From Myxococcales bacterium (GTDB taxonomy: Bacteria > Myxococcota > Myxococcia > Myxococcales > 40CM-4-68-19), in assembly GCA_020201435.1 (NCBI GenBank), contig JAIVGS010000002.1, positions 8,529-72,528 of the forward strand: a stretch of DNA of 64,000 nucleotides. The letters are read 5' to 3'. Shown here one piece after another: positions 15,557 through 62,128 of the stretch. The notes under the pieces were generated by a model. The model did not search any database. It saw only the letters and a program-made list of their open reading frames with translations, and was not told the origin of the DNA. Within the stretch, counting starts at the first letter, position 1, and the number at the start of each line of letters is the position of its first letter. The translations under genes were made by a program, and so were the position numbers.

Positions 15557-16698
15557 GCTGGCCGCGCGCGCCCCTGCTCATGGTCTCGAGCTCGTCCCGG
15601 ACGGGGCCGGCGGAAGGATTGATCTCGCTCGCCCGCGAGCTGCGCTCTCTCGGTCTCGACGCGCGCTTCGGCGGCGACACGGTGCGGCCGGGCGAGAATC
15701 TCGGCGAGCACCTCGCCCATGCCGGGGTGCCGTGGGAGCAGGAGCTGCGGCTGTCGCGGAAGGTGCGGATTCGCGACTTGGTTCGCGACGTGCGATTGCT
15801 CCGGGAGTGGGCGCGGTCGGGGCGATTCGACCTGTTCCACGCCGCGTTTGCCCACGATCACTTCGTCTCGCTGCTCGCCTCACGGCGCGCTCCCGATCTG
15901 CGCCTGGTGCGAGCGGCGCAGCGGCGGATCGACCTCGAGCCCGGGTTCCTGCGGCGGCGGCTCTGGGCGCTGCGGCGCAGCGACGGGGTGGTCGTTCACT
16001 GCGAGTCGTACCGCCGGTTGCTTCTTGGTCAGCTGGCCAAGGAGCGGGTCGCGACCGTCTACGGGTCCGTCGACGGACACTGGTTTTCGCCGGGGCGCTC
16101 GCCGGAGCTGCGCGCGCGATGGGGAATTCCGTCGGCGGCGCCGCTCGCGGGCATCGTCGCGCGGATGAAGCCGGAGCGCGGCCACCGCACGCTGCTGCGC
16201 GCCTTCGTGCGCGCCTTGCGCGAGGTGCGCGACGCCTGGCTGGTGCTGGTCGGCCGCGGCGAGGAGGAGGAGCCGTTGCGCGCCTTGACGCGGGAGCTGG
16301 CGATCTCCGACCGCGTCGTCTTCGGCGGGTATTTGCGGGGGCCGGGGCTGGTGGAGGCGTACCGGGCGCTCGACGTCGCGGTCTGGCTCCGCGAGGGCAA
16401 CGACGGCGCCTGCCGCGGAGTGCTGGAGGCGATGGCGTGCGGAGTGCCGGTGATCGCGGGCGCCGCCGGCGCGCCTGCCGAGCTGGTGACGGCGGAGACC
16501 GGGCGCATCGTCGATCCCGACGACGCCGGGGCCATCGGCGACGCCTTGGCCGGGGTTCTTGGTCATTTGACCAAATCGCGCGAGCTGGGCCTGGCTGCAC
16601 GCGAGCGCGCGCTGCAGTTCACGCCGCGGCGCGCTGCGGAAGAGACGCTGGCCTTCTGGCGCCGCCTGCGCGATCTGCCGCGGGTATGGGGGGCTTGA
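15553..16698 (+). CDS. Glycosyltransferase family 4 (GT1/GT4 fold)
   Basis: This is the C-terminal part of ORF 15094..16698, with a GTGA overlap onto the GT9 stop. Motifs include ...LVLVGRGEEEE..., FGGYLRG and EGNDGACRGVLEAMACGVPVIAG (EX7E-type region). Confidence 0.8.
   Translation: MSWPRAPLLMVSSSSRTGPAEGLISLARELRSLGLDARFGGDTVRPGENLGEHLAHAGVPWEQELRLSRKVRIRDLVRDVRLLREWARSGRFDLFHAAFAHDHFVSLLASRRAPDLRLVRAAQRRIDLEPGFLRRRLWALRRSDGVVVHCESYRRLLLGQLAKERVATVYGSVDGHWFSPGRSPELRARWGIPSAAPLAGIVARMKPERGHRTLLRAFVRALREVRDAWLVLVGRGEEEEPLRALTRELAISDRVVFGGYLRGPGLVEAYRALDVAVWLREGNDGACRGVLEAMACGVPVIAGAAGAPAELVTAETGRIVDPDDAGAIGDALAGVLGHLTKSRELGLAARERALQFTPRRAAEETLAFWRRLRDLPRVWGA
16025..16040. repeat. TTGGTCA-NN-TGACCAA family copy (TTGGTCAGCTGGCCAA, 1 mismatch)
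   Basis: Read directly, inside the GT4 gene. It encodes LGQLAK. Confidence 0.7.
16559..16574. repeat. TTGGTCA-NN-TGACCAA family copy (TTGGTCATTTGACCAA, exact)
   Basis: Read directly, inside the GT4 gene. It encodes LGHLTK and is followed by ATCGCG. Confidence 0.9.
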
Positions 16699-16706
16699 CA
16701 GCGCCG

Positions 16707-16750
16707 GTGCTAATGGATTAGCACTATGATACGTGCTAATGGATTAGCAC
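16707..16750. promoter_or_regulatory. Two identical 18-bp palindromes (GTGCTAATGGATTAGCAC), candidate BlaI-type operators
   Basis: The copies lie at 16707-16724 and 16733-16750, separated by TATGATAC. They end 15 bp before the blaI-like ATG. TTGACA at 16695-16700 and the TATGAT between the palindromes are possible promoter hexamers, but their 24-nt spacing is not canonical. Confidence 0.6.
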
Positions 16751-16764
16751 CTCCGGGAGCAGGC

Positions 16765-17130
16765 ATGGAGCTGGGCAGGCGCGAGCGGCAGATCATGGAC
16801 GCGGTCTATCGGCTGGGACGGGCCACGGTCGCGGAAGTGCGGGCGCAGCTCGCCGACCCGCCGACCTACTCGGCGGTCCGCGGCATGCTTCGTTGGCTGG
16901 AGGAGAAAGGGCAGCTCCGCCACGTTCAGGAAGGGGCGAAATACGTCTACATTCCGACCGTTGCACCTTCCAAGGCGCGGCGATCCGCGCTGCAGCGGCT
17001 GGTGCGGACGTTCTTCGGCGGGTCGACGCGCGAGGCGGTGGCGGCGCTGCTCGAGGATCGCCGGCTCGACCCGGAGGATCTCGATCGGCTGCGCGAGTTG
17101 ATCGACCACGCGCGCAAGGAGGGACGCTGA
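16765..17130 (+). CDS. BlaI/MecI/CopY family transcriptional repressor
   Basis: ORF 16726..17130, from M14. The sequence reads MELGRRERQIMDAVYRLGRATVAEVRAQLADPPTYSAVRGMLRWLEEKGQLRH...YIP. It is translationally coupled (TGATG) to the M56 protein. Confidence 0.85.
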   Translation: MELGRRERQIMDAVYRLGRATVAEVRAQLADPPTYSAVRGMLRWLEEKGQLRHVQEGAKYVYIPTVAPSKARRSALQRLVRTFFGGSTREAVAALLEDRRLDPEDLDRLRELIDHARKEGR

Positions 17131-19184
17131 TGGACGCCCTGCTGGTTCTTTGGTGGAAGGCGGCGGTGGTGCTCGCGGCGGGTGGGGCGGCAGCCGTCGT
17201 GGCCTGGCGGGCTTCGGCGGCGACGCGGCATCTGATCTGGACGGCGGCCCTGGCGGGCGCGCTGTTGTTGCCGGCGGCCATCGTCGTCCTGCCGTCGGTG
17301 CGCGTGGTCGCGCTGCCGGCGCGTCGGGCGAAGCCGGTCCCTTCGGTCGCGCGGATGCCGGTGCCCGTCGCGCCTGTCCGGGCCGTCGTGGCGCGGCCCC
17401 CGACGGTGAGCGAGGCTTTGGTGCCCGCCGCGCCTTTGAAGCGTGTTCGCCGGCCGATCGATTGGCGGCGCGTGGCGCCGTTCGTCTGGCTCGCGGGCGC
17501 GCTCGCGCTGCTCTTGCGCATCGCCGCCGGATCGCTGCAGCTGCGCGCGATGGGTCGGCGCGCGGTTGAGATCGTCGATCCGGCGTGGCGCCGGCTGCTG
17601 GTCGAGTCGGCCGCATGCCTCGGCGTGCGGGGGGAAGTGACGCTGCTCGAGAGCGCGGAGATCGAAGTGCCGGCGACCTGGGGATCGCTCCGTCCGGTCG
17701 TCGTCCTGCCGCCGGCGGCGTCGCGCTGGTCCGATGCGCAAAAGCGCGCGGTGCTGGTGCACGAGCTCGCGCACGTCGCCCGCCGCGACGCCGCCACGCA
17801 GCTGGTCGCGCGCGTCGCCTGCGCCGTCCACTGGGTGAATCCGCTCGCCTGGGCCGCGGCGGCGGCGATGCGGGCCGAGCGTGAGCGGGCATGCGACGAC
17901 TCCGTGCTCGAGGCCGGGGCGCGGCCGACTGACTACGCGACCAACCTGCTCGACGTCGCGCGCGCCGCGCTGCGCGACGGGGCGCCGGCCACTGCGCTGG
18001 CGATGGCGCGCCGGTCGCAGCTCGAAGGCCGGTTGCTGGCGGTGCTCGATCCGCGCCGTGACCGGCGGCCGCTGAGCGCGCGGCGCGCCATCGGAGTGGC
18101 GTGCGGGGCGGCGTGTCTGGTGTTGCCGCTCGCGGCGGTGCGCGCCGAGCGCGCGAGGGCACCCGAGCCCGTCATGGCGACCGTCCCGGAGCCGGAGCCG
18201 GCGGTCGCGCCCGAGCCGCTTCCCACGCCGTCGCCGGTCCGTCGCGCGCGGCGCGCGGTCGCGCAGTCGAGCGTCTCGGTGAGCTCGAGCAGCGGCGACG
18301 TGTACGCCCCGGTCCCGCCGACGCCGCCTTCCGCGCCCACGCCGCCGACGCCGCCTTCCGCGCCCACGCCTCCGACGCCGCCGACTCCACCGTCTCCGCC
18401 CTCGGCGCCGAGCGGCAACTTCAGCCAGCACATCGTTTCGAACGACGGCAGCAGGGTGTGGACCGCCGAGGCGCGGTTCCCGCGGCTCTATCGCGAGCAG
18501 GGCGCCCGCGGCGTGCTCGAGCAGGCCGGCAAGCTGCAGTCGGACTACGCCTTGCGGCGTTATCTGTCGCTGTTGATCGAGGCCGACCCGATGCAGGAGT
18601 CGACCGCGATCGCGGTGGTCGAGAGCGCGTCGCGGATGCACGGCGACTACGACCGCGCCGAGATCCTCAAGGCCGTGGCCGCCAGGGCACGGCTCGACAG
18701 CGACGCTGCGCGCGAGGCGTTCCTGCGCGCGTGCAACGGGATCTCCGGCGACTACGAGCATGCGCGCGTGCTGCACGTCCTCGCCGATCAGTCGACGCTT
18801 TCACCCGCGCTCACCCGCGGCGTGCTCGAGTCGGCCTCGACGATCCGCGGCGACTACGAGAAGTCGGGCCTGTTGATCGCTCTCGCCGGCCGCCATCCGG
18901 TCGATCCGTCCGAATACCTGCGTGCCGCGTCGACGCTCTCGGGGGATTACGAGCGCAGCCGGTCGCTGAAGGCGCTGATCGCGGCCCAGCGGTTGCCGGA
19001 GTCGTCGCAGGTCGACCTCATCCGCCAGGCGGCCCGACTCGGCGATTACGAATCGGCCGAGGTGCTGCTCGCGCTGGCGGCGAAACAGCCTCCCTCGGGC
19101 GAGGCGCTGCGCGAATACGAAAGTGCGGCCCGACGCCTGGGCGACTACTCGCGCCAGCGGGTGCTCGCCGCGCTGCACAAGTAG
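17130..19184 (+). CDS. BlaR1/MecR1-like M56 family membrane metalloprotease-sensor with a non-PBP C-terminal repeat domain
   Basis: This is the C-terminal 684 aa of ORF 16893..19184. It has N-terminal TM segments, the HELAHVARRD zinc motif, a Pro-rich linker, then about 7 repeats of ~33-36 aa each containing GDY[DE]. Confidence 0.8.
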   Translation: MDALLVLWWKAAVVLAAGGAAAVVAWRASAATRHLIWTAALAGALLLPAAIVVLPSVRVVALPARRAKPVPSVARMPVPVAPVRAVVARPPTVSEALVPAAPLKRVRRPIDWRRVAPFVWLAGALALLLRIAAGSLQLRAMGRRAVEIVDPAWRRLLVESAACLGVRGEVTLLESAEIEVPATWGSLRPVVVLPPAASRWSDAQKRAVLVHELAHVARRDAATQLVARVACAVHWVNPLAWAAAAAMRAERERACDDSVLEAGARPTDYATNLLDVARAALRDGAPATALAMARRSQLEGRLLAVLDPRRDRRPLSARRAIGVACGAACLVLPLAAVRAERARAPEPVMATVPEPEPAVAPEPLPTPSPVRRARRAVAQSSVSVSSSSGDVYAPVPPTPPSAPTPPTPPSAPTPPTPPTPPSPPSAPSGNFSQHIVSNDGSRVWTAEARFPRLYREQGARGVLEQAGKLQSDYALRRYLSLLIEADPMQESTAIAVVESASRMHGDYDRAEILKAVAARARLDSDAAREAFLRACNGISGDYEHARVLHVLADQSTLSPALTRGVLESASTIRGDYEKSGLLIALAGRHPVDPSEYLRAASTLSGDYERSRSLKALIAAQRLPESSQVDLIRQAARLGDYESAEVLLALAAKQPPSGEALREYESAARRLGDYSRQRVLAALHK
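18315..18368 (+). repeat. Perfect in-frame 27-bp tandem duplication (CCGCCGACGCCGCCTTCCGCGCCCACG x2) in the BlaR1-like linker
   Basis: Read directly. It encodes PPTPPSAPT twice and is followed by a degenerate third unit. Confidence 0.85.
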
Positions 19185-19194: not shown

Positions 19195-20091
19195 ATGACT
19201 CCGGGGATCTACCTCGTCCACAAGCCCGCCGGGCAGACCAGCTTTTCGCTGGTGCAGGCGTTCATGGAAGAAGTGCGCGCGTCGGGCCTGCGGCGCGACA
19301 AGCTGCCGGCCTGCCACGGCGGCGCGCTCGATCCGTTCGCCGATGGGCTGCTGCTCATCCTCGCGGGACAGGCGACGCGCCTGATGGATCTGCTGCACCC
19401 GATCCCCAAGACGTACGTCGCCGAGATCGCCTGGGGCAGCGAGACCGACAGCGGAGACTCTCTTGGCCAAATGACCAAATCGACCAAATCGCTTACGGTG
19501 ACCGAGCGGGACCTCACCGCCGCTCTGGAGCAGTTCGTCGGTTGGCGCGAGCAGGTCCCCCCGTCGACGAGCAACAAGCGCGTGGACGGTGAACGCGCGT
19601 ACCGGAAGGCGCACCGGGGGGAAACCGTCGTCCTGCCGCCTTCGCGCGTGTATCTCCACTCGGCGCGCTGGCGCTCGCACGACCTCCCCCGCGGCAGCGT
19701 GCTCGAGATCGTCACCGGCGGCGGGTACTACGTCCGCTCGCTCGCGCGGGACCTCGGGCGTGCCACTGGCGCATTTGGTCATTTGACCAAATTGCACCGG
19801 ACCGCGATCGGGCCGTGGTCCGATCCCCGGGACGGCCGCGAGCTGATCCGCGGCGCGCAGCTCTATCCCTGGTGTCCCTCGGTCGAGATCGACGAGCGCG
19901 AGCTGGCCCTCCTGCGCGGCGGCCGCGGCATCGAGCGCCGGCCGCCGACGGCGCCCGAGTGGAAATTGCCCGACGGTTTTCCCGACCCGCACGCGCCGCT
20001 TCGGGCGTTGATCGCCGGCCGGATCGTCGCCCTGCTGCGCGAGCGCGACGGCAAGCTGCACGCCGCGCCGGTCCTGCGCGGGCCGCTGTGA
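19195..20091 (+). CDS. truB: tRNA pseudouridine(55) synthase
   Basis: ORF 19123..20091, from M25. Motifs are GIYLVHKPAGQTSF, CHGGALDPFADGLLLIL (catalytic Asp), KTYVAEIAWG and VPPSTSNKRVDGERAY. Confidence 0.9.
   Translation: MTPGIYLVHKPAGQTSFSLVQAFMEEVRASGLRRDKLPACHGGALDPFADGLLLILAGQATRLMDLLHPIPKTYVAEIAWGSETDSGDSLGQMTKSTKSLTVTERDLTAALEQFVGWREQVPPSTSNKRVDGERAYRKAHRGETVVLPPSRVYLHSARWRSHDLPRGSVLEIVTGGGYYVRSLARDLGRATGAFGHLTKLHRTAIGPWSDPRDGRELIRGAQLYPWCPSVEIDERELALLRGGRGIERRPPTAPEWKLPDGFPDPHAPLRALIAGRIVALLRERDGKLHAAPVLRGPL
19463..19497. repeat. TTGGTCA-NN-TGACCAA family, long (35-nt) form: TTGGCCAAATGACCAAATCGACCAAATCGCTTACG
   Basis: Read directly, inside truB. It encodes LGQMTKSTKSLT. Confidence 0.85.
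19775..19790. repeat. TTGGTCA-NN-TGACCAA family copy (TTGGTCATTTGACCAA, exact)
   Basis: Read directly, inside truB. It encodes FGHLTK. Confidence 0.9.
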
Positions 20092-20092
20092 T

Positions 20093-20118
20093 CTGATTTG
20101 GTCAAATGACCAAATCAG
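20093..20118. repeat. 26-bp palindrome CTGATTTGGTCAAATGACCAAATCAG containing an exact family copy (20098-20113)
   Basis: Read directly. It starts 2 nt after the truB stop and contains the ligD stop codon (20115-20117) in its right arm. Confidence 0.9.
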
Positions 20119-21974
20119 AGGCCGGCGACCGCCGCGAGCGCCTGGGCCGTCAGCCGCTGGTGACTCTTCCAGTATTCCTTCCACGGGTCGGCGCGCAGCC
20201 GCGGCACCGTCTGTACGGTGAATTTCAGCGGATCGAGACGCGCCGACAGCTCGTCCCACGCGATCGGGACCGAAACCGGCGCGCCCGGCCGCGCCCGCGG
20301 CGAGTACGCCGCGATCGAGGTGTTGGTCCGGTTGTTGCGCAGGTAATCGATCAGGATCTTCTTCTCCCGCCCGGCCTTCGCGTACTCCGTGGTGTACGAC
20401 GCGCGATGCTGTCGCTCGACGGCCCGCGCCAGGTCGCGCGAAAAAGCGAGACAGTCGGTCCAGTCGCGCTCCGGAGCGAGCGGCACCACCACGTGCAACC
20501 CGCGGCCGCCGGTGGTCTTGACGAAGCTCTCGAGACCGAGGGCCCGCAGCGCCGACCGCAAGAGCCGCGCGCCCCCGACCACCTGGCGCCATCGCACCTC
20601 CGGACCCGGATCGAGATCGATCACGATTCGATCCGGCAGCTCGACCGCCTCGTCGCGCGTGTTCCAGGTATGGAACTCGATCACGTCCATCTGCACCAGC
20701 GCGAGCACCGCCTCGGGAGTATCGGCGATCAGGTACTCGCCGAGCTTCTTCTTCTCCTGAATCCGCACTCGCCGCAGGGCATCGGGGGCCCAAACCTTGG
20801 AGTGCTTCATGAACGTGCAGTCGTCGCCGATCGCGCCGGGGCAGCGCAGGAGCGTGAGCGGCCGCCCGCGCAGGTGCGGCAGCTCACGCTCGGCGACGCG
20901 GTCGTGATAGCGAGCCAGGTCGAGCTTGGAGAGGGCCTCCGCGGGAAAGACGACGCGCTCCGGATGGCTGAGCGAAATCCCGCGAACGGCGGGCCGCTCG
21001 CGGCCGACCTCGCGCGGCGCCTTGTCCTCGCGCAGTCCCTGAAAGGACGGATGGCGCAGGTTTCCGCCTTCGGTCCACTCGGTGAACATGACCTCCGCGA
21101 TCAACGCCGGTTTCACCCAGCGCGCGTTCCGCCCGAGCCAGCCCGGCGGCCGCTCGTCGAACGGGCACTCGCGCGTGCGCAGCGGCTCGAAGCGCGCGCG
21201 CAGCGACCGCGCCGCGGAGCGCGTGTAGCCGGTGCCGACCTTGCCCGCGAATCGAAGCTTGCCCGCCTCGTTCACGCCGACGAGCAGCGCCCCGATCGCC
21301 TTGCCGGGCTCGCGGGACGATTCGGTGAAACCGCCGACGACGAACTCCTGCCGGCGGACGCACTTCGTCTTGACCCACGCCGTGCTACGCCCCTCGTGGC
21401 GGGGAGAATCGAGCCGCTTGGAGACGATCCCTTCGAAACCGAGCCGGCAGGCCTCGCGAAGGACCGACGCGCCGCCGCCGAGCCAGTGCTGCGCGAGACG
21501 GACCATGCCGGTCCGCGGAACGGCTGCCGCGAGCGCGCGCGTGCGATCGCGCAGCGGCATGCGTGACAGATCGCGGCCGTCGAGCTCGAGCGCGTCGAAG
21601 ACGAAATAGACCAGCTCGCCGCGCCGGTCCCCGGCGATCCAGTTCTGCAGCGCCTGAAAGCTGGTGCGCCCATCGGCGAGGAGGACCGCGATCTCGCCGT
21701 CGAGGAGGGCGCTGGACACGGGAAGGCTGCGAGCGGCCGCCGCGACTTCGGGAAAATCACGCGTCCAGTCGTTCCCCTTGCGGCTCAGGAGCCGTACGCC
21801 GGCGCGCGCGACGCGGCATCCGATCCGGTACCCGTCGTACTTGATCTCGTGCAGCCAATCGTCGCCATCGGGAGGCGCCGGGACGAGCGTCGCGAGCTGC
21901 GGCCGGTACACGCTCACGTCGTTAGAGAGCCGGTGATGCTCGGTCGACGCCATTGCGGCAACATCGTCGTCCAA
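20115..21974 (-). CDS. ligD: Bifunctional LigD-type ATP-dependent DNA ligase + primase-polymerase (no phosphoesterase domain seen)
   Basis: ORF 20115..21974 (619 aa). The ligase motif is EIKYDGYR, with EGIVSKR. The C-terminal Pol domain has KTTGGRGLHVVVPL and LIDYLRNNRTNTSIAAYSPR. ATG 21953 is an alternative start. Confidence 0.85.
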   Translation of the reverse strand: MDDDVAAMASTEHHRLSNDVSVYRPQLATLVPAPPDGDDWLHEIKYDGYRIGCRVARAGVRLLSRKGNDWTRDFPEVAAAARSLPVSSALLDGEIAVLLADGRTSFQALQNWIAGDRRGELVYFVFDALELDGRDLSRMPLRDRTRALAAAVPRTGMVRLAQHWLGGGASVLREACRLGFEGIVSKRLDSPRHEGRSTAWVKTKCVRRQEFVVGGFTESSREPGKAIGALLVGVNEAGKLRFAGKVGTGYTRSAARSLRARFEPLRTRECPFDERPPGWLGRNARWVKPALIAEVMFTEWTEGGNLRHPSFQGLREDKAPREVGRERPAVRGISLSHPERVVFPAEALSKLDLARYHDRVAERELPHLRGRPLTLLRCPGAIGDDCTFMKHSKVWAPDALRRVRIQEKKKLGEYLIADTPEAVLALVQMDVIEFHTWNTRDEAVELPDRIVIDLDPGPEVRWRQVVGGARLLRSALRALGLESFVKTTGGRGLHVVVPLAPERDWTDCLAFSRDLARAVERQHRASYTTEYAKAGREKKILIDYLRNNRTNTSIAAYSPRARPGAPVSVPIAWDELSARLDPLKFTVQTVPRLRADPWKEYWKSHQRLTAQALAAVAGL

Positions 21975-21989
21975 CGCGTCAGCTCACCC

Positions 21990-37514: not shown

Positions 37515-38579
37515 ATGTTGAAGCCGCCGATCGCGCCGATGCTGGCCAAGCTCTCGACTGCGCTGCCCGAGGGGGACGGGTGGCTGTACGAGCCGAAATG
37601 GGACGGTTTTCGCGCGCTGGTCTTCCGCGACGGTTCGGACGTCTACCTGCAGAGCCGCGATCTGAAGCCGTTGAACCGGTATTTTCCCGAGCTGCTCGGA
37701 CCGCTGGGTGCGCAGCTGCCGGCGGGGTGCGTGCTGGATGGGGAGATCGTGATCGCCGACCCGTCGGGGCATCTCGACTTCGACGCGCTGCTGCTGCGGA
37801 TCCATCCGGCCGAATCGCGGATCAAGCTGCTCGCTTCGCAGACGCCGGCGTCGTACGTCGCGTTCGATCTCCTCGCGCGAGACGGCGAGGATCTGACCGG
37901 AACGGCGCAGGCGAAGCGGCGCGAGCTGCTGGAGAAGATCCTCTCACGGGCGACGCCCCCGCTGTACCTGACGCCGGCGACGCGCAACCGTTCGGTTGCG
38001 GGAGACTGGTTCTCCCGCTTCGAGGGTGCGGGCCTCGACGGTGTGGTCGCCAAGCGGCTGGAAGAGGCGTACCAGCCTGACAAGCGCGTCATGCTCAAGG
38101 TGAAGCACGCCCGCACCGCGGACTGCGTGGTCGCCGGTTTTCGCTGGCACAAGAACGGGCCGGGAACGATGGTCGGATCTCTCCTGCTCGGGCTCTACGA
38201 CGACTCCGGGACGCTGCACCACGTCGGCGTGACGTCCTCGTTCACCACCGCGGCGCGCAAGCAGCTCGTCGCGGAGCTCGAGCCGCTCCGCGCCGGCGCC
38301 GCGGAGAACCATCCCTGGCGCGATTGGGCTTCGTGGGCCGGCGAGCAGCGGATGCCGGGCGCGACTTCGCGCTGGAATCGCGGCAAAGACCTCTCGTGGG
38401 AACCGCTGCGCATCGAGCGGGTGTGCGAGGTTGCCTACGACCATCTGCAGGGCGACCGGTTCCGCCACGCGACCACCTTCAAGCGCTGGCGTCCGGACAA
38501 GCCGCCGTCCGAGTGCCGCTACGATCAACTCGAGGAGACGCCCGCTGCGGAGCTGAAGCAGATCTTCGGCGCGCGTTGA
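37515..38579 (+). CDS. ligC: ATP-dependent DNA ligase (LigC-like, ligase domain only)
   Basis: ORF 37515..38579 (354 aa). Motif I is YEPKWDGFR. Further motifs are LDGEIV, DGVVAKR and MLKVKH. Confidence 0.85.
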   Translation: MLKPPIAPMLAKLSTALPEGDGWLYEPKWDGFRALVFRDGSDVYLQSRDLKPLNRYFPELLGPLGAQLPAGCVLDGEIVIADPSGHLDFDALLLRIHPAESRIKLLASQTPASYVAFDLLARDGEDLTGTAQAKRRELLEKILSRATPPLYLTPATRNRSVAGDWFSRFEGAGLDGVVAKRLEEAYQPDKRVMLKVKHARTADCVVAGFRWHKNGPGTMVGSLLLGLYDDSGTLHHVGVTSSFTTAARKQLVAELEPLRAGAAENHPWRDWASWAGEQRMPGATSRWNRGKDLSWEPLRIERVCEVAYDHLQGDRFRHATTFKRWRPDKPPSECRYDQLEETPAAELKQIFGAR

Positions 38580-38619
38580 CGCTTGCCTGCGGCGACTTGT
38601 CCATTTTCACGGGCTCCGT

Positions 38620-39636
38620 ATGCTGAAAAGCGTGCCGGCGCGCAAGGAGCTGCTCCAGGTCGAAGGCCGCGAGGTCGCGATCTCGAATCCCGACAAGGTC
38701 TTTTTCCCGCAGCGCGCGATCACCAAGCTCGACCTGGTCAAGTACTACCTCGCGGTCGCCGCGGGCGCGCTGCGCGGAGCGGGCGGCCGGCCGATGGCGC
38801 TCAAGCGCTACGTCAACGGCGCCGAGGGAGCATTCTTCTTCCAGAAGCGCGCGCCGGAAGCGCGGCCGCTGTGGATCGAGGTCGTGGAGCTGAAGTTTCC
38901 CTCCGGGCGCACCGCGCGGGAGATCGTGCTGCGCGATGCGGCGCAGCTGGCATGGATCGTCAACCTCGGCTGCATCGATCTGCATCCGCACCCGGTGCGC
39001 GCGGAGGATCTCGATCATCCCGACGAGCTGCGCGTCGATCTCGATCCGGTCCCGAACGTGCCCTTCTCGCAGGTCCGCGAGGTCGCGCTGCTGGCGCGCG
39101 AGGTGCTGCGCGAGCACCGCCTGGAAGGATTTCCCAAGACCTCGGGTTCGCGCGGGATTCACGTCAACGTGCGGATTCAACCGCGCTGGACCTTCCAAGA
39201 CGTGCGCGCGGCTGCGCTCGCGCTCGCGCGCGAAGTGGAGCGCCGCGCGCCATCGCTGGCGACGTCGAAGTGGTGGAAGGAAGAGCGGCATGGCGTGTTC
39301 ATCGACTACAACCAGAACGCGAAGGATCGGACGGTCGCGTCCGCGTATTCGGTGCGGCCCACGCCCGACGCGCGAGTCTCGACGCCCCTCGGCTGGGACG
39401 AAGTTCCGAACGTCGACCCTGCGGAGTTCACGCTCGAGACGGTGCCACGGCGCTTCGCGGCGCTCGGCGATCCGCACGCGAAGATCGAGGAGGAGAAGGG
39501 CTCGCTCGAATCGCTGCTCGAGCTGTCGGCGCGGCAGAAATCGGAAGGGCAGGGCGATGCGCCGTGGCCGCCGCATTACGCCAAGCAGGACGACGAACCG
39601 CCGCGCGTGCAGCCCTCGAAGCGCCGCAAGCGCTAG
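38620..39636 (+). CDS. LigD-polymerase-domain-like primase-polymerase (Prim-Pol)
   Basis: ORF 38620..39636 (338 aa). Motifs are ISNPDKVFFP, DLDP, KTSGSRGIHVNVRI and FIDYNQNAKDRTVASAYSVRP. Confidence 0.85.
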   Translation: MLKSVPARKELLQVEGREVAISNPDKVFFPQRAITKLDLVKYYLAVAAGALRGAGGRPMALKRYVNGAEGAFFFQKRAPEARPLWIEVVELKFPSGRTAREIVLRDAAQLAWIVNLGCIDLHPHPVRAEDLDHPDELRVDLDPVPNVPFSQVREVALLAREVLREHRLEGFPKTSGSRGIHVNVRIQPRWTFQDVRAAALALAREVERRAPSLATSKWWKEERHGVFIDYNQNAKDRTVASAYSVRPTPDARVSTPLGWDEVPNVDPAEFTLETVPRRFAALGDPHAKIEEEKGSLESLLELSARQKSEGQGDAPWPPHYAKQDDEPPRVQPSKRRKR

Positions 39637-40157: not shown

Positions 40158-42410
40158 ATGAACCGCATTGCGACATTGCTCTTCCTTTTCGCCGCCCCTT
40201 CGTTCGCGCAAGCCCAGGGTGCGCTGTTCGAACGCGCGCAAACCGGGCCGAGCCCGAATCTGCGCGCGGTCGCCGAGCGCGTGCGGGTGACGATCGATCA
40301 CCAGTATGCGGAGACCGTGCTCGAGCAGGAATTCGAAAACACGTCGGGCGCGCGACTCGAGGGTCGCTACCTCCTGCGCACCGCGGGCGCGACCGTCGAA
40401 GGATTCGCCTACTGGAACGGCGAGCAGAAGATCGTCGGCGAGGTCTTCGAGAAGCAGCAGGCGCGCAACCTCTACGAGAACGTCGTCGGCCGCAGGCGCG
40501 ACCCGGGGTTGCTCGAGCAGATCGGCGAAGGAAGCTTCGCGTTCAACGTCTTTCCGATCGAGCCGCGCGAGAGGAAGCGCGTCGAGGTCCGCTTCGGCCA
40601 GCGGCTCGCGCGCGAAGGCCGAACGATGCAGTACCGGCTGACGCTCGGTGGCGGCGAGAGCGACGTCGTCGCCGAGATCTCCGATCCGCATCCGATCCTG
40701 CGCATCGATTCGCAGAGTCATCGGCTCGACACCGAACGACTCGACGCGCGGCACGCGCGGGTGCGCGCCTTCGCCGGGCCATCGGGGACGCGAGACCTGA
40801 TCATCGACGTCGAGGTCAACGCCGATCCGTGGCAGCCGACCGCCGTCGTGCATCGCGATCCGGGCCAGGACCCCTACCTGGTGCTGCAGATGGCCGCGCC
40901 GGCGACGGTCGCGGCGAGCGAAGTCAGCCGCAAGGACGTGACCGTGGTGATCGATCGATCGGGCAGCATGACCGGCCCGCCGATGGACCAGGCCTGCGCT
41001 GCCGGCGAGCTGGTCGTGCGCCGGTTGCGGCGGGGCGATCGCGTCAACGTGATCGCCTTCGATCACACCGTCGATCCGCTGTTCACGAAGCCGCAGCCGG
41101 TCGAGACCGCGCGCGATGCGGCGCTGCAGTTCATCCATCGCATCCGCGCGGGCGGCGGCACCAACATCGCCGCGGCGCTCGACGCCGCGCTCCGCGCGCA
41201 GCACGGCGGGACCGAGCCTCACATCGTCCTCTTCCTCACCGACGGCCAGTCGGACAGTGAATCGGCGCTGCGGGTCGCTCACGACGATCGCGGCGACACG
41301 CGCGTGTTCACCTTCGGCCTCGGGAGCGAGGTGGAGAAGGCGCTTCTCTCGCGGCTCGCTTCGACCAAACGCGGGCGCTTCACGTACGTCGAGAGTCCGG
41401 AGGTCATCGAGCAGCGGGTGGGCCGCCTCTTCGACCAGATCGAGTCGCCCGCGCTGGTCGGGCTCTCGCTGGAGGCGCGGGGCGCGACGCTGCTGCGCAC
41501 GTATCCCCGGACGCTGCCGGATCTCTCGGCGGGCGACGACCTGCTCGTCGCGTCGCGGGTGATGGGCGCCCCGGGGTCGCAGCTCGAGCTGGTCGTGCAC
41601 GGCACGCTCGGCGGGCGGCAGGTTTCGTATCCGGTCAGCGTCACGCTGCCGGAGCGCGCCTCGCACCCGTGGGCGGGGCGGCTGTGGGCGAAGTCGCGCA
41701 TCGACGACGTGCTGGAGGAGATGGCGTTGACCCGCGATCCGCCCAACGAGCTGAAGGACGAGGTCATCGAGCTCGGGCTGGCGTACGACCTGGTGACCCC
41801 GTACACGTCGTTCCTCGCCGTGCCCGAGAGCGAGCTCGCCGGCGAGCAGGCGCTGACACTGGCGCAGATGCGCGAGCAGCGGGCGAAGGTCGTCGCGGCG
41901 AACGCCGACGCGGCGGCGCTGTCGCGCAAGAACATGCCGCCCGGCGATCCGCTGCTGACGGTGAACGCGCCGCGGGATGCCCTGCAGGTCACCGCATATT
42001 TCCCGTTCGGGCTGGTGCGCGACCTGAAATGGGACGATCACCTCGAGAAATGGACGCTGCGTTTCCTGGTGCCAGTCGGTGTCGCCGACGGCGATTACGA
42101 GGCGATGGTGGTCATCGTGCGCCGCGATCACACCATCGAGCTGGCGAAAGCGGCGTACACGATCGACAGCAAGGAGCCGGAGTTCGAGGTCGATGCCGCG
42201 CAGGCGATCTCCGGCGTGCACGTACGCGTAATCGCCGCCGAGCCGGCGCGGCGTGTGACCGTGGCTCTCGCCCGCGATCCGCGGCAGCGCATCGAGCTCG
42301 CCGGCGACGGCCGCGTGTTCGAAGGCGATCTTCCCGTGCGCGGCACGCTGCGGGTCGTGGTCGCGGACATGGCGCGGAACGAGACCTCGCGCGAGGTCGA
42401 GCCGCGATGA
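40158..42410 (+). CDS. Secreted VIT (vault/inter-alpha-trypsin) + von Willebrand factor A domain protein
   Basis: ORF 40071..42410, from M30. It has a signal peptide (MNRIATLLFLFAAPSFAQA), a VIT-like N-terminus and a VWA MIDAS motif (VVIDRSGSM...TNIAAAL...LFLTDGQSD). Confidence 0.8.
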   Translation: MNRIATLLFLFAAPSFAQAQGALFERAQTGPSPNLRAVAERVRVTIDHQYAETVLEQEFENTSGARLEGRYLLRTAGATVEGFAYWNGEQKIVGEVFEKQQARNLYENVVGRRRDPGLLEQIGEGSFAFNVFPIEPRERKRVEVRFGQRLAREGRTMQYRLTLGGGESDVVAEISDPHPILRIDSQSHRLDTERLDARHARVRAFAGPSGTRDLIIDVEVNADPWQPTAVVHRDPGQDPYLVLQMAAPATVAASEVSRKDVTVVIDRSGSMTGPPMDQACAAGELVVRRLRRGDRVNVIAFDHTVDPLFTKPQPVETARDAALQFIHRIRAGGGTNIAAALDAALRAQHGGTEPHIVLFLTDGQSDSESALRVAHDDRGDTRVFTFGLGSEVEKALLSRLASTKRGRFTYVESPEVIEQRVGRLFDQIESPALVGLSLEARGATLLRTYPRTLPDLSAGDDLLVASRVMGAPGSQLELVVHGTLGGRQVSYPVSVTLPERASHPWAGRLWAKSRIDDVLEEMALTRDPPNELKDEVIELGLAYDLVTPYTSFLAVPESELAGEQALTLAQMREQRAKVVAANADAAALSRKNMPPGDPLLTVNAPRDALQVTAYFPFGLVRDLKWDDHLEKWTLRFLVPVGVADGDYEAMVVIVRRDHTIELAKAAYTIDSKEPEFEVDAAQAISGVHVRVIAAEPARRVTVALARDPRQRIELAGDGRVFEGDLPVRGTLRVVVADMARNETSREVEPR

Positions 42411-43584
42411 TCGCGGCGCTTCTCCTCGCGGCGATCTTCACCGACACCGCGCAAGTCGAGAGCATTGCCACCGCCGGCGCGACCCTCTGGGCCGCGACCG
42501 GCGGCGGCGTCGAACGGTACGATCTCGCCACCGGCAAGCGGGTCCGCGTCCACACCATCGGGCCGACGCTGCGGATTTGGTCAAATGACCAAAACGGTCA
42601 AATCGCTCATGCGCGCACGCGGGATTCCGAGTGCATCCTCGAGGGCGAGACCGCAGAGTGCATTGCGGCGCCAGCGCTGCCGCCGTCGATCCCCTCGGTG
42701 ACTCCGCTGTTTCACGGAGCGCGCGAGACCGCACGCGTCGTCGCAAACGGCACGACCGTCGTCGCCACCGCGGGCAAGGGCATTTGGTCAAACGACCAAA
42801 TGCTCACCCCGCCAGGCCAGATCTGCGGCAATTACGTCGAGGCGCTGGCCGAATTCCAGGGAAAGCTGTGGGTCGGCGGGTTCGACGGCGGCCTCTGTGT
42901 CCTGGACGGGCAGCGTTTCCGAGCGGTGGCGGGGCCGTTCCGGATGATCAACGACCTGCGCACCACGCCGAAAGGCCTCTACGTCGCCTCGGCCGAGGGC
43001 CTCTACTTCACCCGCGACGGCCGCCGGTTCCGCCGCGAAGACCGCATCCGCGAGCGGGCCGTCAACCACCTCGCCGTCGGCGGCCGGTGGCTCTTCGCCA
43101 CCACGCCGTTCGCGCTGTACGCCGTCCGGCTCGATGGCCGGATCGTCAAGCGCTGGCGAAAGCCGGCCGGCTCGACCGCCCTGCAATCGGTCGCGGTGAG
43201 CGGACCGAATCTCTGGCTCGCGTCGGAAGACGTCGGCGTCATCCGCATGCGCCGAGGCAGGTTCGAAGCTTACGACCGCGCCTGGGGATTGCCGTCCAGC
43301 TGGACGGTCGACGTCGCACCGGCGTCCGACGGCGGCGTCTGGGCGGCGACGCTGCGCAACGGCTCGGTCCATCTCGACGCCAACGGACGCGTGATCGAGC
43401 TCGGCCCCGACCCGCACGCCTGGGGACTGCGCCTCTACCAGGACCGGGGCCGCACGCTCTTCGGCACGCAACAGGGCCTCGAAGGCATCGAGGGCCTCCC
43501 CGATCCGCACGTGCACGCGATCCTCCGGACACGCGACGGCCTCTGGATCGGCACCGAGGGCGGCCTGGTCCTGCTCGACGATGC

Positions 43585-43588
<4 letters not shown>
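42407..43588 (+). CDS. beta-propeller-like repeat protein (two-component-regulator-propeller-like)
   Basis: This is the C-terminal 393 aa of ORF 41669..43588, with an ATGA overlap onto the VWA gene. It carries repeated G.LW(V/A)(G/A)T / GL..... motifs. It contains two copies of the TTGGTCA palindrome. Confidence 0.6.
42577..42611. repeat. TTGGTCA-NN-TGACCAA family, long (35-nt) form: TTGGTCAAATGACCAAAACGGTCAAATCGCTCATG
   Basis: Read directly, inside the propeller gene. It encodes IWSNDQNGQIAHA. Confidence 0.9.
42781..42802. repeat. TTGGTCA-NN-TGACCAA family copy (CATTTGGTCAAACGACCAAATG; core 42784-42799, 1 mismatch)
   Basis: Read directly, inside the propeller gene. It encodes GIWSNDQM. Confidence 0.8.
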
Positions 43589-46764
<3,176 letters not shown>

Positions 46765-56564: not shown

Positions 56565-57413
56565 GTGCTGCTGCGCCTCGTCCGCGATTTCCGCCGCGCG
56601 ATGGACCTGTCGCTGGTGCTCGATCAGGAGAAGATCGAGCACCAGCTGCGCAGCGTCGGCGAGGAGCAGTGGGCGCTCACGATCGGCGACGAGGCGGACG
56701 CCGAGCGGGCAGAGAAGGCTTTGATCGCGTTCGAGCGGGAAAATCCGCCGGTCGCAAGCCGCAAGCCGCAGGCCCCGCTGTCCGACGGCATCGGCGCCGG
56801 CGTGGTCTTCGGCCTCGCGCTGCTCGCGCTGCAGATCTGGACTGGCCCCGAATCGGACAACGCGTGGTTCGTCCGCGGCAGCGCCGAGGCATCGCAGATC
56901 GTGCGCGGCGAGTGGTGGCGCGCGATCACCGCGCTCACGCTGCACGCCGACGCCGGACATGCGGTCGGAAACGCGCTCCTCGGCGGCCTGTTGCTCACCC
57001 TGCTCGCCCGGCGCCTCGGCTCCGGCGTCGCCTCCGCGGCGATGTTGCTCGCCGGCATGCTCGGCACGTTTGCCGCCGCCGAGCTGATGCGGCGCCACTT
57101 CGTTTCCGTCGGCGCCTCGACCGCGGTGTTCGGCGGGCTCGCCGAGCTCGCCGCGCTGCAGGCGGCCGATCCCGAATCGCGCCGGCGCGCCTGGATCCCT
57201 CTCGGGGCCGGCGTCGCGCTGCTCGGGTTTCTCGGATCGTCGAAGCGCGCCGATCTCGCCGGCCATCTCTGCGGTTTCGCCGCCGGCGTCGCGATCGGCT
57301 TCGCGGTCTCGCGCCTTCCACGGCTGCGGAGCAAGGCCGCCCAGTCGGCGCTCGCCTGCGCCGCCGCATGTACGCCGGTCATCGCCTGGCTGCGCGCTCT
57401 CTTGGTCAACTGA
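56565..57413 (+). CDS. Rhomboid family intramembrane serine protease
   Basis: This is the C-terminal part of ORF 56217..57413. Motifs are WWRAITALTLHAD, the catalytic VGASTAVFGG and AGHLCGFAAG. The start is GTG 56565 (ATG 56601 is the alternative). Confidence 0.7.
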   Translation: MLLRLVRDFRRAMDLSLVLDQEKIEHQLRSVGEEQWALTIGDEADAERAEKALIAFERENPPVASRKPQAPLSDGIGAGVVFGLALLALQIWTGPESDNAWFVRGSAEASQIVRGEWWRAITALTLHADAGHAVGNALLGGLLLTLLARRLGSGVASAAMLLAGMLGTFAAAELMRRHFVSVGASTAVFGGLAELAALQAADPESRRRAWIPLGAGVALLGFLGSSKRADLAGHLCGFAAGVAIGFAVSRLPRLRSKAAQSALACAAACTPVIAWLRALLVN

Positions 57414-57417
57414 CCAA
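57402..57417. repeat. TTGGTCA-NN-TGACCAA family copy (TTGGTCAACTGACCAA, exact)
   Basis: Read directly. It contains the rhomboid stop codon (57411-57413) and ends 20 nt before the glgB ATG. Confidence 0.9.
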
Positions 57418-57437: not shown

Positions 57438-59312
<1,875 letters not shown>

Positions 59313-59404
59313 CGCTGCTGCACGCCGCCGAGCGCTCGGGCCGCAGTGCAGGCAGGCGACCGCCCGCAATTGTAGCGGTGTCGCGCAGGCCACAGCTTTC
59401 CCAC

Positions 59405-60367
59405 ATGCGCTTCGGCTTCCTGATGGATCCGCTCGAGCACGTCCGCGTCGACCACGACACCACCTTCGCGCTCATGCTCGAGTGTCGCCGCCGCGGCATC
59501 GAGGTGCGCGAGCTGCGGCAGGAGTGGCTCTTCCTCGCCGGCGGACGGGCGCGGTCGCGGATGCGGACCGTCGACGTCGATCGCGGCGGCGATCCGCATT
59601 TCCGCGTGCTCGCCGACTGCGACGCGCCGCTCGCCGATCTCGACGTGCTCTTCCTGCGCAAGGATCCGCCGGTCGACGTCGACTTCCTCCGCGCGACGCA
59701 GATGGTCGAGCTCGGCCCCGGACCGCTCTGGATCAATCATCCCGCCGGCCTGCGCGCCGCCAACGAGAAGCTGCTCGCGCTGCGCTTCGCCGATCTCGGT
59801 CCACCGTCGATCGTGACCCGGGAGATGACGCGGCTGCGTTCGTTCATCGCGGCTGCCGGAGGCGACGCGGTCGTGAAACCGCTCGATGGCTGCGGAGGGC
59901 AGGGCGTGGTCCGCGTGCGCGAGGGCGATCCGAACTTCAACGCGCTGCTCGAGATCGCGACCGGAGGCGGGCGCACGCCGGTCCTGGCGCAGTCGTTTCT
60001 GCCGGCGGTCCGCGAAGGTGACAAGCGCATCATCGTCCTAGACGGCGAGCCGGTGGGCGCGGTCCTGCGGGTGCCGAAGCAAGGCGAGCTGCGGGCCAAC
60101 TTCGCGGCCGGCGGTCGCGCCGCCGCGGCGCCGATCACCGCGCGCGATCGCGAGATCTGCCGCCGGCTCGCGCCCGATCTGCGCGCGCTCGGCCTCTGGC
60201 TCGCCGGGATCGACGTCATCGGCGGCAAGCTCACCGAGGTGAACGTGACCAGCCCGACCGGCCTCGTCGAGATCGACGCGCTCTCCGGAGGCTCGCTCGA
60301 GGCGCGGGTGATCGATTTCGCGCTCGCTCGCGCCGGATTGCGCGGCCGGGCCGCCGCGGGTCTGTGA
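59405..60367 (+). CDS. gshB: Glutathione synthetase (prokaryotic ATP-grasp type)
   Basis: This is the C-terminal 320 aa of ORF 56669..60367. Motifs are MRFGFLMDPLEHVRVDHDTTFALMLE, VVKPLDGCGGQGV, GDKRIIVLDGEPVGA and LTEVNVTSPTG. Confidence 0.85.
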   Translation: MRFGFLMDPLEHVRVDHDTTFALMLECRRRGIEVRELRQEWLFLAGGRARSRMRTVDVDRGGDPHFRVLADCDAPLADLDVLFLRKDPPVDVDFLRATQMVELGPGPLWINHPAGLRAANEKLLALRFADLGPPSIVTREMTRLRSFIAAAGGDAVVKPLDGCGGQGVVRVREGDPNFNALLEIATGGGRTPVLAQSFLPAVREGDKRIIVLDGEPVGAVLRVPKQGELRANFAAGGRAAAAPITARDREICRRLAPDLRALGLWLAGIDVIGGKLTEVNVTSPTGLVEIDALSGGSLEARVIDFALARAGLRGRAAAGL

Positions 60368-60963
60368 GGCTGGTGAACGCCGTTCACCGCGCGGCCGCGA
60401 TCCTTCTCGCCGGCGCTGCCTGCGGCAACGACGCGGGCGCCGGCGCCACCTTCGAGGGGTCCATCCACGGCTTGGCCATGCAGCCAAAAGACGCCATCTC
60501 CTCGCCGGCGACGGTCGCGTTCTCCTCCGGCTCGGCGCCAGTCGCCGCGATCGTGATCGGCGACGTGCCCCAACTCTGCGCGAAGGTGAGCGCCAACCTC
60601 GAGCCCAGGAGCTCGACGCTGCTGCTGCTCTTCCTCGCCGACGTGAACCCGGTCAGCGGCGCGATCCAGCCGGCGGCCGGAACCGGATCGTTTCCGGTCT
60701 TCAGGATCGGCAACGGCGCCGCCCCACCTCACTTCGCCATGGCCTCGTTCGGAGCGAACGACGCGACCTGCCACGCCATCGACGCCGATTCCGCCGACGC
60801 GGTCACCGGCTCCGTCACGCTCACCGCCAACGGGGCGGGGGCGTACAGCGGCATGTACGATCTCACCTTCGACAGCGGCGACCACGTCACCGGTTCGTTC
60901 CACACCGGTACCTGCCAGGCTTTGAGCGACTACCTCACCCGGTTCACGCACGATTGCGGGTGA
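60364..60963 (+). CDS. Hypothetical secreted protein / possible lipoprotein
   Basis: ORF 60364..60963 (199 aa). It has a signal-like N-terminus ending ILLAGAACGN (weak lipobox), Cys pairs, and an ATGA-type overlap with gshB. Confidence 0.55.
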   Translation: MRLVNAVHRAAAILLAGAACGNDAGAGATFEGSIHGLAMQPKDAISSPATVAFSSGSAPVAAIVIGDVPQLCAKVSANLEPRSSTLLLLFLADVNPVSGAIQPAAGTGSFPVFRIGNGAAPPHFAMASFGANDATCHAIDADSADAVTGSVTLTANGAGAYSGMYDLTFDSGDHVTGSFHTGTCQALSDYLTRFTHDCG

Positions 60964-60968
60964 AGTTC

Positions 60969-61003
60969 TTGGTCAAATGACCAAATCGTTCAAATCGCTC
61001 AAG
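60969..61003. repeat. TTGGTCA-NN-TGACCAA family, long (35-nt) form: TTGGTCAAATGACCAAATCGTTCAAATCGCTCAAG
   Basis: Read directly. It is intergenic, between two convergent stops (60963 and 61015). Confidence 0.9.
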
Positions 61004-61014
61004 CGGGCTCGAGT

Positions 61015-61521
61015 TCAACGGCGTGGCTTGACGGGCTCGAGCCGGATCTGCGTCCGCTCGTCCTCGTTCTCGTCGGCGACCTCGGTGAGCCGGTTGCCGG
61101 CGCGGCGGAGCCGCCGGCAGAGCTCGCGGTTGATGTTCTGCAGCACCAGCACGTAGCCTTTCACGTCGTCGCGGTAGAGCTGGTACAGGTCGAGGTTGGT
61201 CAGCTCCCAGAGGCGCGCGTCGCGCTCGACGACCACCGTGAACGGCCGCGGCTGCATCTCGATCAGCGTCATCTCGCCGAAGAAATCTCCCTCGAAGAAC
61301 CGCATCAACCGCACGGTCCCGCCCGACCCGCCGGCCTGGTTCGCGACCAGCTCACCGGAGTGGACGACGTACATCGACTTGCCGGCCTCGCCCTCGCGGA
61401 AGACGTCCGAGCCGGTCTCGTAGCTGCGCTCGACCAGCATCTTCACCAGCCGGTTCATCGTCTCGTCCGGCAGGCCGCCGAAGAACGGCGTGCGCGAGAG
61501 GAATTCCTTCAGCTCGCTCAT
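61015..61521 (-). CDS. Cyclic-nucleotide-binding domain protein (single domain)
   Basis: ORF 61015..61785, from M89. The sequence reads FLSRTPFFGGLPDETMNRLVKML...GDFFGEMTLIE...RPFTVVV. No HTH is seen. Confidence 0.75.
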   Translation of the reverse strand: MSELKEFLSRTPFFGGLPDETMNRLVKMLVERSYETGSDVFREGEAGKSMYVVHSGELVANQAGGSGGTVRLMRFFEGDFFGEMTLIEMQPRPFTVVVERDARLWELTNLDLYQLYRDDVKGYVLVLQNINRELCRRLRRAGNRLTEVADENEDERTQIRLEPVKPRR

Positions 61522-61582
61522 GATCGGACTGTAGCGCACCCGGGGCGCGGCGGCCGCGGCGGCGGCCGGATAACTTGGCCGG

Positions 61583-62128
61583 ATGACCAAGGCCGACAAG
61601 GCGAGCGACCTGTCCGAGGCCGCGCTGGCCCTCGACCACGAGCTGCGCCGCTTCGAAGACCTCGCCGCGCAGGCCGCCCGGATCCGCCTCAACACCGAAA
61701 AGAACGTCGAGCGCGCGACCGACGCGCTCTCTCGCGCCGCCGAGAGCCAGGACCGGATCAACGCCATCGTCCAGCAGTTGGTCAAGGCGGTGGGTGCGGC
61801 GCGTCAGAAGCAGGAATCCGACGCCGCCGCGCTGATCGCCCGCGCCCAGGAGATCGCGGCCCGCCGCAAGCAGTTTGCCGACGTGCTGCAGCGGATGGCC
61901 GGCCTTGGTCAAATGGCCAAGGAAGTGCAGGAGCTGCTCAAGTCCGGCCCCGGGAACTTCGACGAGATCCAGCAGCGGATGCAGAGAGTGGCCGACGACG
62001 CCGCCGAGATCGGCAAGGCAGCGCAAGACCAGGACATGGAAGACCTCTCCCGCCAGGCCGACGTCCTCCGCCAGCAGGTCCTCTCCGCGAAGAACAAGGT
62101 TTCGATCCTCGCCGCCAAAAAAAGCTGA
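61583..62128 (+). CDS. Hypothetical coiled-coil protein
   Basis: ORF 61583..62128 (181 aa). It is Ala/Gln/Glu-rich with a heptad-like sequence and good codon bias. It contains one palindrome copy. Confidence 0.55.
   Translation: MTKADKASDLSEAALALDHELRRFEDLAAQAARIRLNTEKNVERATDALSRAAESQDRINAIVQQLVKAVGAARQKQESDAAALIARAQEIAARRKQFADVLQRMAGLGQMAKEVQELLKSGPGNFDEIQQRMQRVADDAAEIGKAAQDQDMEDLSRQADVLRQQVLSAKNKVSILAAKKS
61905..61920. repeat. TTGGTCA-NN-TGACCAA family copy (TTGGTCAAATGGCCAA, 1 mismatch)
   Basis: Read directly, inside the coiled-coil gene. It encodes LGQMAK. Confidence 0.75.

Follow-up and report, generated by a model that had tools for sequence, protein, structure and literature searches.

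A palindromic DNA word repeated in genes of a Myxococcales genome is probably the operator of an uncharacterised TetR-family regulator

Why should one A+T-rich palindrome of 16 bp recur inside and between unrelated genes of a G+C-rich genome? The question is raised by a stretch of 64,000 nucleotides from a Myxococcales bacterium (assembly GCA_020201435.1, contig JAIVGS010000002.1, positions 8,529 to 72,528 of the forward strand), the whole of which is called the window in what follows, and whose composition is A = T = 0.152 and G = C = 0.348 (G+C 69-72%). A preliminary description of the window had listed ten copies of the inverted repeat TTGGTCA-NN-TGACCAA. The analysis presented here indicates that the word, written as (Y)TTGGTCA-WW-TGACCAA(R), is probably the operator of an uncharacterised regulator with the domains TetR_N and TetR_C_24, whose regulon would have spread into coding sequences within a single clade of uncultured soil Myxococcales.

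A search of the window with the pattern TTGGTCANNTGACCAA recovered all ten copies, six of them exact and four carrying one mismatch. Chance had been judged an unlikely source, and this judgement holds: none of 100 dinucleotide-preserving shuffles produced any match, and the number calculated from base composition for 64 kb is ~3e-5 exact copies, or ~2e-3 with at most one mismatch. Raising the tolerance to three mismatches added one extra site only, an eleventh and degenerate one at position 61575 (TTGGCCGGATGACCAA), so that sites in the window are either near-perfect or absent; lone half-sites are not enriched in the window. The extended consensus reads (W)(Y)TTGGTCA-WW-TGACCAA(R)(W), and the 20-mer form of the word is CTTGGTCAAATGACCAAG.

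The link to a protein comes from other genomes. We scanned one genome per species, for 185,579 species, and metagenomes as well, with the 19-base form TTGGTCAWWTGACCAAATC, which four of the window's sites match. At four loci from phylogenetically separate genomes, L135 (the Myxococcaceae contig), L139 (GL92), L133 and L158 (both Gemmatimonadota), the ATG contained in the palindrome is the start codon of orthologous TetR proteins of 220-226 amino acids, 41-57% identical. According to Pfam, the proteins starting in the motif contain TetR_N (PF00440) and TetR_C_24 (PF17932). Among their 120 best homologues in a collection of 5.8 billion proteins, 78 start with MTK (ATG ACC AAR), 14 with MAK, five with MTN and three with LTK, and the residues following the start are hypervariable. 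Over-extended gene calls of the regulator translate the upstream half together with the second operator, giving LLGQMTK or LGHLTK-12 aa-LGQMTK.

The DNA of the regulator locus in eight further assemblies displays a constant architecture. First comes an exact copy (O1), then TTGAC(G/T), 17 bp, CAAGCT, 2 nt and finally the copy containing the ATG (O2); in the Myxococcota TetR loci examined, O1 lies beyond the -35/-10-like pair, and the spacing from O1 to O2 is 54-56 bp. More copies are found at the start of an RlmI-like gene, upstream of the acyl-CoA dehydrogenase gene and at the 3' end of the regulator gene, which gives four or five copies in 1.5-3 kb, with none in the remaining ~19 kb of L173. 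The regulator gene overlaps a gene for an AurF-like di-iron oxygenase, usually as a co-transcribed pair, and the acyl-CoA dehydrogenase gene is close by. The arrangement persists in homologues of no more than 51-56% identity, where the site is a GC-richer variant or lies on the start codon of the divergent gene. The subfamily ranges over soil Myxococcota and Gemmatimonadota, one listed homologue being labelled Thermoanaerobaculia, and the clade's metagenome-assembled genomes (MAGs) GL92 and GL140_3 carry the regulator as well as dispersed sites. No synteny between the TetR locus and the window was detected by blastn or tblastx.

It is this conserved position at the regulator's own start that leads us to read the palindrome as a TetR operator. 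In the logo of the sites, information is confined to W-TGACCAA-R-W in each half-site, with none beyond +/-10 bp, an extent that matches the size expected for a TetR dimer. The regulator reaches no NCBIfam equivalog cut-off; its nearest solved relatives in the PDB, all of the TetR family, are 4mxm/4mo7, 3vpr, KstR2, AibR and Mce3R, among which AibR, KstR2 and Mce3R are acyl-CoA-responsive regulators. In the mechanism that we propose, a TetR dimer would bind each copy and, at its own gene, would block the promoter and the transcription start until released by a ligand, for which an acyl-CoA or some related lipid metabolite is the probable candidate.

The copies present in the window, including the degenerate eleventh site, are the following.

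16025..16040: TTGGTCAGCTGGCCAA, one mismatch, GC centre; inside the GT4 glycosyltransferase gene, read LGQLAK.
16559..16574: exact; 3' end of the GT4 gene, read LGHLTK, ~200 bp upstream of a blaI-like gene.
19463..19478: one mismatch; inside truB, read LGQMTK; perfect in five related species.
19775..19790: exact; inside truB, read FGHLTK.
20098..20113: exact, palindromic over 26 bp in all; lies between two convergent stops, those of truB (20091) and LigD (20115).
42577..42592: exact; 5' part of the Reg_prop propeller gene (start 42407), read IWSNDQ.
42784..42799: one mismatch; same propeller gene, 207 bp downstream of the 42577 copy.
57402..57417: exact; provides the TGA stop of the rhomboid gene, 21 bp upstream of the glgB ATG (57438).
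60969..60984: exact; between convergent stop codons (60963 and 61015).
61575..61590: TTGGCCGGATGACCAA, two mismatches; spans the ATG of the coiled-coil gene (MTKADK).
61905..61920: one mismatch; inside the coiled-coil gene, 330 bp past the start-codon copy, read LGQMAK.

Codon-position G+C profiles and the translations of open reading frames (ORFs) agreed with the placement of the copies given in the preliminary description. Five intragenic copies share the phase nTT GGT CAx xTG ACC AAn and are read (L/F)G(Q/H)(M/L)(T/A)K, namely two in GT4, two in truB and one in the coiled-coil gene; the two copies of the Reg_prop gene are read IWSNDQ. The third codon phase places a TGA in frame, and copies in that phase occur only as stop codons, in the window as in its relatives (proteins ending ...LLVK or ...SLVK). 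The 61575 site is located in the 61-bp divergent region common to the coiled-coil gene and a cyclic-nucleotide (cNMP)-binding gene.

We compared orthologous sites in relatives that share 72-86% identity with the window over the aligned DNA. Across these sites the identity of the arms was 0.99 and that of the flanks 0.52, a statistic biased by the choice of sites through their motif match; conservation was therefore rechecked on the positions other than the 19-mer match that had retrieved each locus. At these unbiased orthologous positions (both truB copies, 42784, 57402, 60969, 61575 and 61905) the word, with at most one mismatch, is kept in 27 cases out of 27, while ungapped flank identity at orthologous sites ranges from 0.33 to 0.78.

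Specifically, the 19775 copy is conserved in five of five relatives at positions not used for retrieval, and the 20098 copy is kept despite an unrelated downstream flank (identity 0.42). Orthologous copies of 42577 are present in L233 and L277, and the 42784 copy in both relatives compared. The copy at 57402 is found in 4/4 relatives with AA, TT, AT or AC as its centre (flank identity 0.35), and that at 60969 in 9/9, four of which were not used for retrieval (flank identity 0.33). At 61575, degenerate in the window, nine of nine relatives have a perfect TTGGTCAAATGACCAA; the 61905 copy occurs in 8/8 relatives, with the same G variant in seven of them. The two GT4 copies are young sites: the one at 16025 is absent at the orthologous position in all three relatives, GL92 having TCCGGCACCTGCCGGC there without an indel, and the one at 16559 is found in one of three (L202), GL92 having unrelated codons of the same length, again with no indel. 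In relatives without blaI/blaR, the 16559 copy lies upstream of truB. These comparisons indicate that the copies of the clade are under purifying selection.

As several copies overlap AUG starts and UGA stops and others lie between convergent genes, the functional form could in principle be an RNA hairpin (UUGGUC-loop-GACCAA) controlling the start or the termination of translation. We regard this as highly improbable: the arms are conserved base for base with no covariation, one-mismatch variants (TTGGCC...GACCAA) are uncompensated, the stem would have only six pairs, copies are found on both strands with respect to the host gene, and at the TetR promoter it is the upstream, untranscribed copy that is conserved as well.

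Whether selection acts on the DNA word or on the proteins is best answered by TruB, for which we compared 120 homologues. The distant ones, 60-70% identical, read LGRVVA and (L/R)AHL(A/S/R)A at the two positions, whereas TruB of the close clade reads LGQMTK (34 homologues) and [FL]GHLTK (40 homologues); intermediates exist as well (LGQVVA, LGQVTK, LGQTTK, LGHLAA and LGHLTG/R). The alignments indicate that the words were built by stepwise substitution (LGRVVA to LGQMTK; LAHLAA to LGHLTK), with no indels, and were then maintained, at a cost of three or four amino-acid changes for installing the word. This stepwise recoding followed by maintenance means that the protein sequence does not dictate the word, which answers the refutation condition set in the preliminary description. 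Since distant TruB peptides differ and the word is kept while its flanks diverge, the earlier inference that selection targets the DNA word rather than the proteins is borne out.

The arrangement of neighbouring copies is informative about how the putative operators might work. Among 26 unique adjacent pairs less than 100 bp apart, 11 are spaced at exactly 44 bp, eight at 54-56 and five at 65-66, the 44-bp class being represented at no fewer than five independent loci. These classes lie about one helical turn apart, which argues for interacting dimers on the same face of the DNA; phasing at 44, 55 and 66 bp would suit such an interaction. On a larger scale, sites around target genes recur every 200-600 bp: truB has one copy upstream in GT4, two inside and one just past its stop, for the coiled-coil gene, one at -606 and one at +330 stand on either side of the start-codon copy, and the regulator gene, besides its start-codon copy, has one at -54 and another in its 3' end. 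Copies inside genes and at 3' ends near truB, the coiled-coil gene and the regulator gene would most likely be auxiliary operators, which may raise local repressor occupancy, allow looping or serve as roadblocks.

A 60-bp unit made of operator, 28-bp spacer and operator was observed at five or more clade loci (for example L134 2826-2885, L258 12899-12958, L182 7692-7751 and L291 2696-2755). It often stands at gene ends, where its first operator gives the TGA stop, and the spacers of these 44-bp pairs contain TCTCCTCTGG/CCAGAGGAGA or a short CCCTC..GAGGG hairpin. In addition, a longer right flank, TGACCAA-ATCG-TYC(A/G)AATCGCTCA, is common to four independent loci (window 19463-19495, 42577-42610 and 60969-61002; L127 2301, L186 12297 and L207 9330). 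It resembles a 9-bp direct repeat of the half-site edge, and in truB the flank is likewise recoded, from ARGDAS to KSSKSL. Gene conversion may have produced this longer flank, or it may represent a third half-site. As for the centre of the palindrome, it is always AA where the ATG serves as a start and alternates between AA and TT at the other sites; 144 of 160 unique sites have AA or TT.

Shared flanks of this kind (...CCAAATCGTYCAAATCGCTCA at four loci), operator-28 bp-operator units with similar spacers at a minimum of five loci and an AA/TT centre in 90% of sites might suggest that the copies are a small mobile or gene-converting palindrome, akin to a repetitive extragenic palindrome or a miniature inverted-repeat transposable element, to which TetR binding would be incidental. 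This explanation is very unlikely, since the gains in GT4 and TruB left no length change in the alignments, the intermediates LGQVVA, LGQVTK and LGHLAA point to point substitutions, no terminal repeats or target duplications were seen, and the logo has no information beyond +/-10 bp.

How abundant is the word? The 185,579-species scan returned only 40 stretches with the 19-base form, mostly single matches in unrelated taxa. Enriched genomes were three MAGs named 'Deltaproteobacteria bacterium', with five (GL92), three (DP_35) and two stretches (GL140_3); single loci of the 19-base form were found in a 9-Mb Myxococcaceae contig, where there is one, and in two Gemmatimonadota MAGs. Metagenomes yielded 118 stretches, of which the 54 with G+C of 0.66 or more hold one to five sites each, and those of low G+C essentially one each. 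The sites with at most one mismatch, 253 in number, fall into 42 flank-homology groups, corresponding to roughly 12-20 genomic loci. Clade copies lie on start codons, just 5' of starts, on stops, between convergent genes and inside genes, and the dispersed loci include the TetR locus, a locus with an AidB-like acyl-CoA dehydrogenase and a PBP, the start of an SDR gene, the end of a BioF-like gene and an ArsA-like gene.

The operator is thus moderately abundant, with a candidate regulon of ~12-20 loci. Among the explanations first proposed, a very abundant operator for a CRP/GntR-like dimer came closest to the evidence: the idea of a dimeric helix-turn-helix (HTH) protein and its operator stands, with TetR in place of CRP or GntR as the probable family and a moderate instead of a very high abundance (roughly 12-20 loci per genome).

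Another of those proposals, a signal like the DNA-uptake sequences, spread by biased uptake and recombination, did not survive. It would account for a word present in coding DNA in several phases and at gene ends and for its lineage-specific recoding. However, uptake sequences of the DUS and USS type number hundreds to thousands of copies across a whole genome, and a genome-saturating signal is excluded by the low copy number found here, the 19-base form occurring in only five, three and two stretches in whole related MAGs and once in the 9-Mb contig. Moreover, no copy occurs in the 19 kb adjoining the TetR locus, close pairs show helical phasing, and the word is a perfect, protein-sized palindrome tied to the start codon of a regulator gene across phyla. 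We consider an uptake signal extremely improbable. No competence genes and no ParB domain were recognised among the window ORFs scanned, and the word is unrelated in sequence to TGTTNCACGTGAAACA, in accordance with the earlier remark that it does not match canonical parS. The third of those proposals, an array for a nucleoid or partition-type protein, keeps some probability, though neither ParB nor a comparable gene was recognised in the window.

Scans of viral contigs with the 14-base core gave single matches only, one site per contig, and a literature search for the 16-mer and the 14-mer found no paper. Conservation of the 16-mer core, there with an AT centre, was also seen in other phyla: in Rhizobium between a glutamine-synthetase-like gene and an FAD oxidoreductase gene (L130 7293, L155 1703) and within a 40-bp palindrome beside a small HTH gene (L140 5706, L191 5445). 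They seem to reflect further regulators whose boxes happen to be alike; a place for them in the present system was considered and rejected, since none of these cases has this TetR, which makes them unrelated coincidences.

The loci are concentrated. Since 24 of the 54 metagenome loci and four of the ten clade loci of the genome scan are syntenic with the window, the region is a hot spot. This concentration, together with the conserved and phased positions of the sites and the functionally unrelated host genes, is what would be expected if a TetR protein had been co-opted as a chromosome-position or nucleoid factor, in the manner of RefZ or SlmA, with the array marking a ~60-kb domain instead of regulating its host genes. 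RefZ and SlmA are themselves TetR-family proteins, and the near-palindromic sites of RefZ are positionally conserved across the genus (PMC6657595). Yet the regulator retains a full ligand-binding domain and the context of a metabolic operon (AurF-like, acyl-CoA dehydrogenase), many sites coincide exactly with a start codon or promoter, scores with the RefZ model reach just 32-44 bits where 180 are required, and no dif-like site was found in the window, so that this function is, in our opinion, unlikely. A related possibility, to which we likewise give little weight, is that a metabolite-sensing TetR has taken on a second job, the phased ~60-kb array, written into housekeeping genes such as truB and retained throughout the clade's history, then serving to mark chromosome structure or position in a ligand-switchable way instead of repressing genes one by one.

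Several observations weigh against the operator reading. The proposed connection between protein and DNA rests on conserved position. ORF and Pfam scans revealed no TetR regulator gene within the window, and the regulator gene of the source assembly was not located (P0009, P0017, P0030 and P0241 belong to other assemblies). TetR regulons are usually small and promoter-proximal, and no regulatory logic is apparent behind conserved sites in truB, in the propeller gene and between genes that converge. An ordinary regulon would not predict that ~40% of the retrieved clade sites lie in the region syntenic with the window, nor does the reading explain the AA/TT bias of the centre or the longer flank common to four loci.

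Other features of the region and its relatives deserve a brief mention. An AT-rich 18-bp palindrome, GTGCTAATGGATTAGCAC, lies at 16707-16730 between the GT4 stop (16698) and the start of the blaI-like (Penicillinase_R) gene (16765), and probably serves the blaI-blaR pair as an operator of the BlaI/MecI type. The MAG GCA_046262975.1 encodes a TruB protein identical to that of the window; on the MAG contig with the identical TruB (L121 7804-8070), 267 bp are present in the blaR-like M56 gene in addition to what the window has at ~18463, and they hold a one-mismatch copy, TTGGTCGGATGACCAA, read SWSDDQ. The difference is either strain variation or an assembly difference. A site of the relatives that is absent from the window (L186 ~12260-12330, minus strand, syntenic with window ~53.85 kb) falls in a possible 15-codon upstream ORF, MPERFERFGQMTKRG, whose stop overlaps the start of the next gene (TGATG).

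Two LigD-related genes lie 17 kb apart in the window, one for a full LigD with ligase and Prim-Pol parts (20115-21983, minus strand) and one for a Prim-Pol-only LigD (38557-39636, plus strand). GC skew turns from positive to negative at ~42000-44000, near 43 kb, where plus-strand VWA/Reg_prop genes give way to a minus-strand kinase-WD40 gene. A dif site or terminus was considered here and rejected: no dif-like 28-mer was found, and the skew change matches the switch in gene strand and is not evidence for a terminus. A sigma-70 promoter scan of 56.9-62.3 kb gave no match and was uninformative.

In conclusion, if the palindrome is the operator that we propose, a precise site and a candidate regulon are assigned to a widespread, unstudied TetR subfamily. 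TruB offers an unusually clean natural case in which what would be a transcription-factor site has forced amino-acid changes in a conserved enzyme, with the intermediates kept in relatives. A false lead is also removed, the word being neither an uptake sequence nor a centromere.

It remains to set the proposed system beside known ones. AibR of Myxococcus xanthus is by sequence among the closest solved relatives of the regulator, and the acyl-CoA dehydrogenase in the regulator's gene neighbourhood recalls the AibR group. AibR regulates itself through a palindromic operator whose half-sites are 2 nt apart (PMC5389471). The sequence of that operator, CTACCTACCGGTCGGTAGG, is however unrelated to the word described here, on which ground identity of the regulator with AibR was rejected, and AibR has only ~2 additional candidate sites in its own genome.

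RefZ of Bacillus binds a handful of near-palindromic sites, the RefZ-binding motifs (RBM), at positions conserved between species (PMC6657595). The regulator shares the TetR fold of RefZ and SlmA; its match to the RefZ model covers the HTH only, and SlmA gave no hit. SlmA of E. coli binds tens of palindromic SlmA-binding sites (SBS), many of them inside genes. Unlike these two proteins, the regulator belongs to a metabolic operon, and its putative sites overlap promoters and start codons.

Auxiliary operators in coding DNA are exemplified by lac O2 in lacZ and gal OI in galE. The likeness is that additional operators lie within the regulated gene or beyond its end, some hundreds of bp away from the main one; LacI and GalR differ in being tetrameric or loop-forming repressors, whereas looping by the TetR protein is here only suggested by the phasing.

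The closest parallel in site usage is RutR of E. coli, like the present regulator a ligand-sensing TetR-family protein, which binds a 16-bp palindrome and has 14 of its 20 in vivo targets in coding DNA, with start codons hundreds of bp away (PMC2475637). The RutR box, TTGACCAnnTGGTCAA, is likewise a 16-bp palindrome with a 2-bp centre and the same hexamers, but with the half-sites in the opposite order (TTGACCA..TGGTCAA as against TTGGTCA..TGACCAA), so that the two words differ at the position reported as the most important for RutR; nor is the regulator a RutR equivalog (scores of 36 and 30 bits, with the cut-off at 368). Intragenic RutR sites are degenerate and have no known effect, whereas those described here are near-perfect and conserved across species. 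The present system would therefore be a second TetR case, next to RutR, with mostly intragenic sites, here with clear purifying selection, which turns the role of intragenic operators into a testable question.

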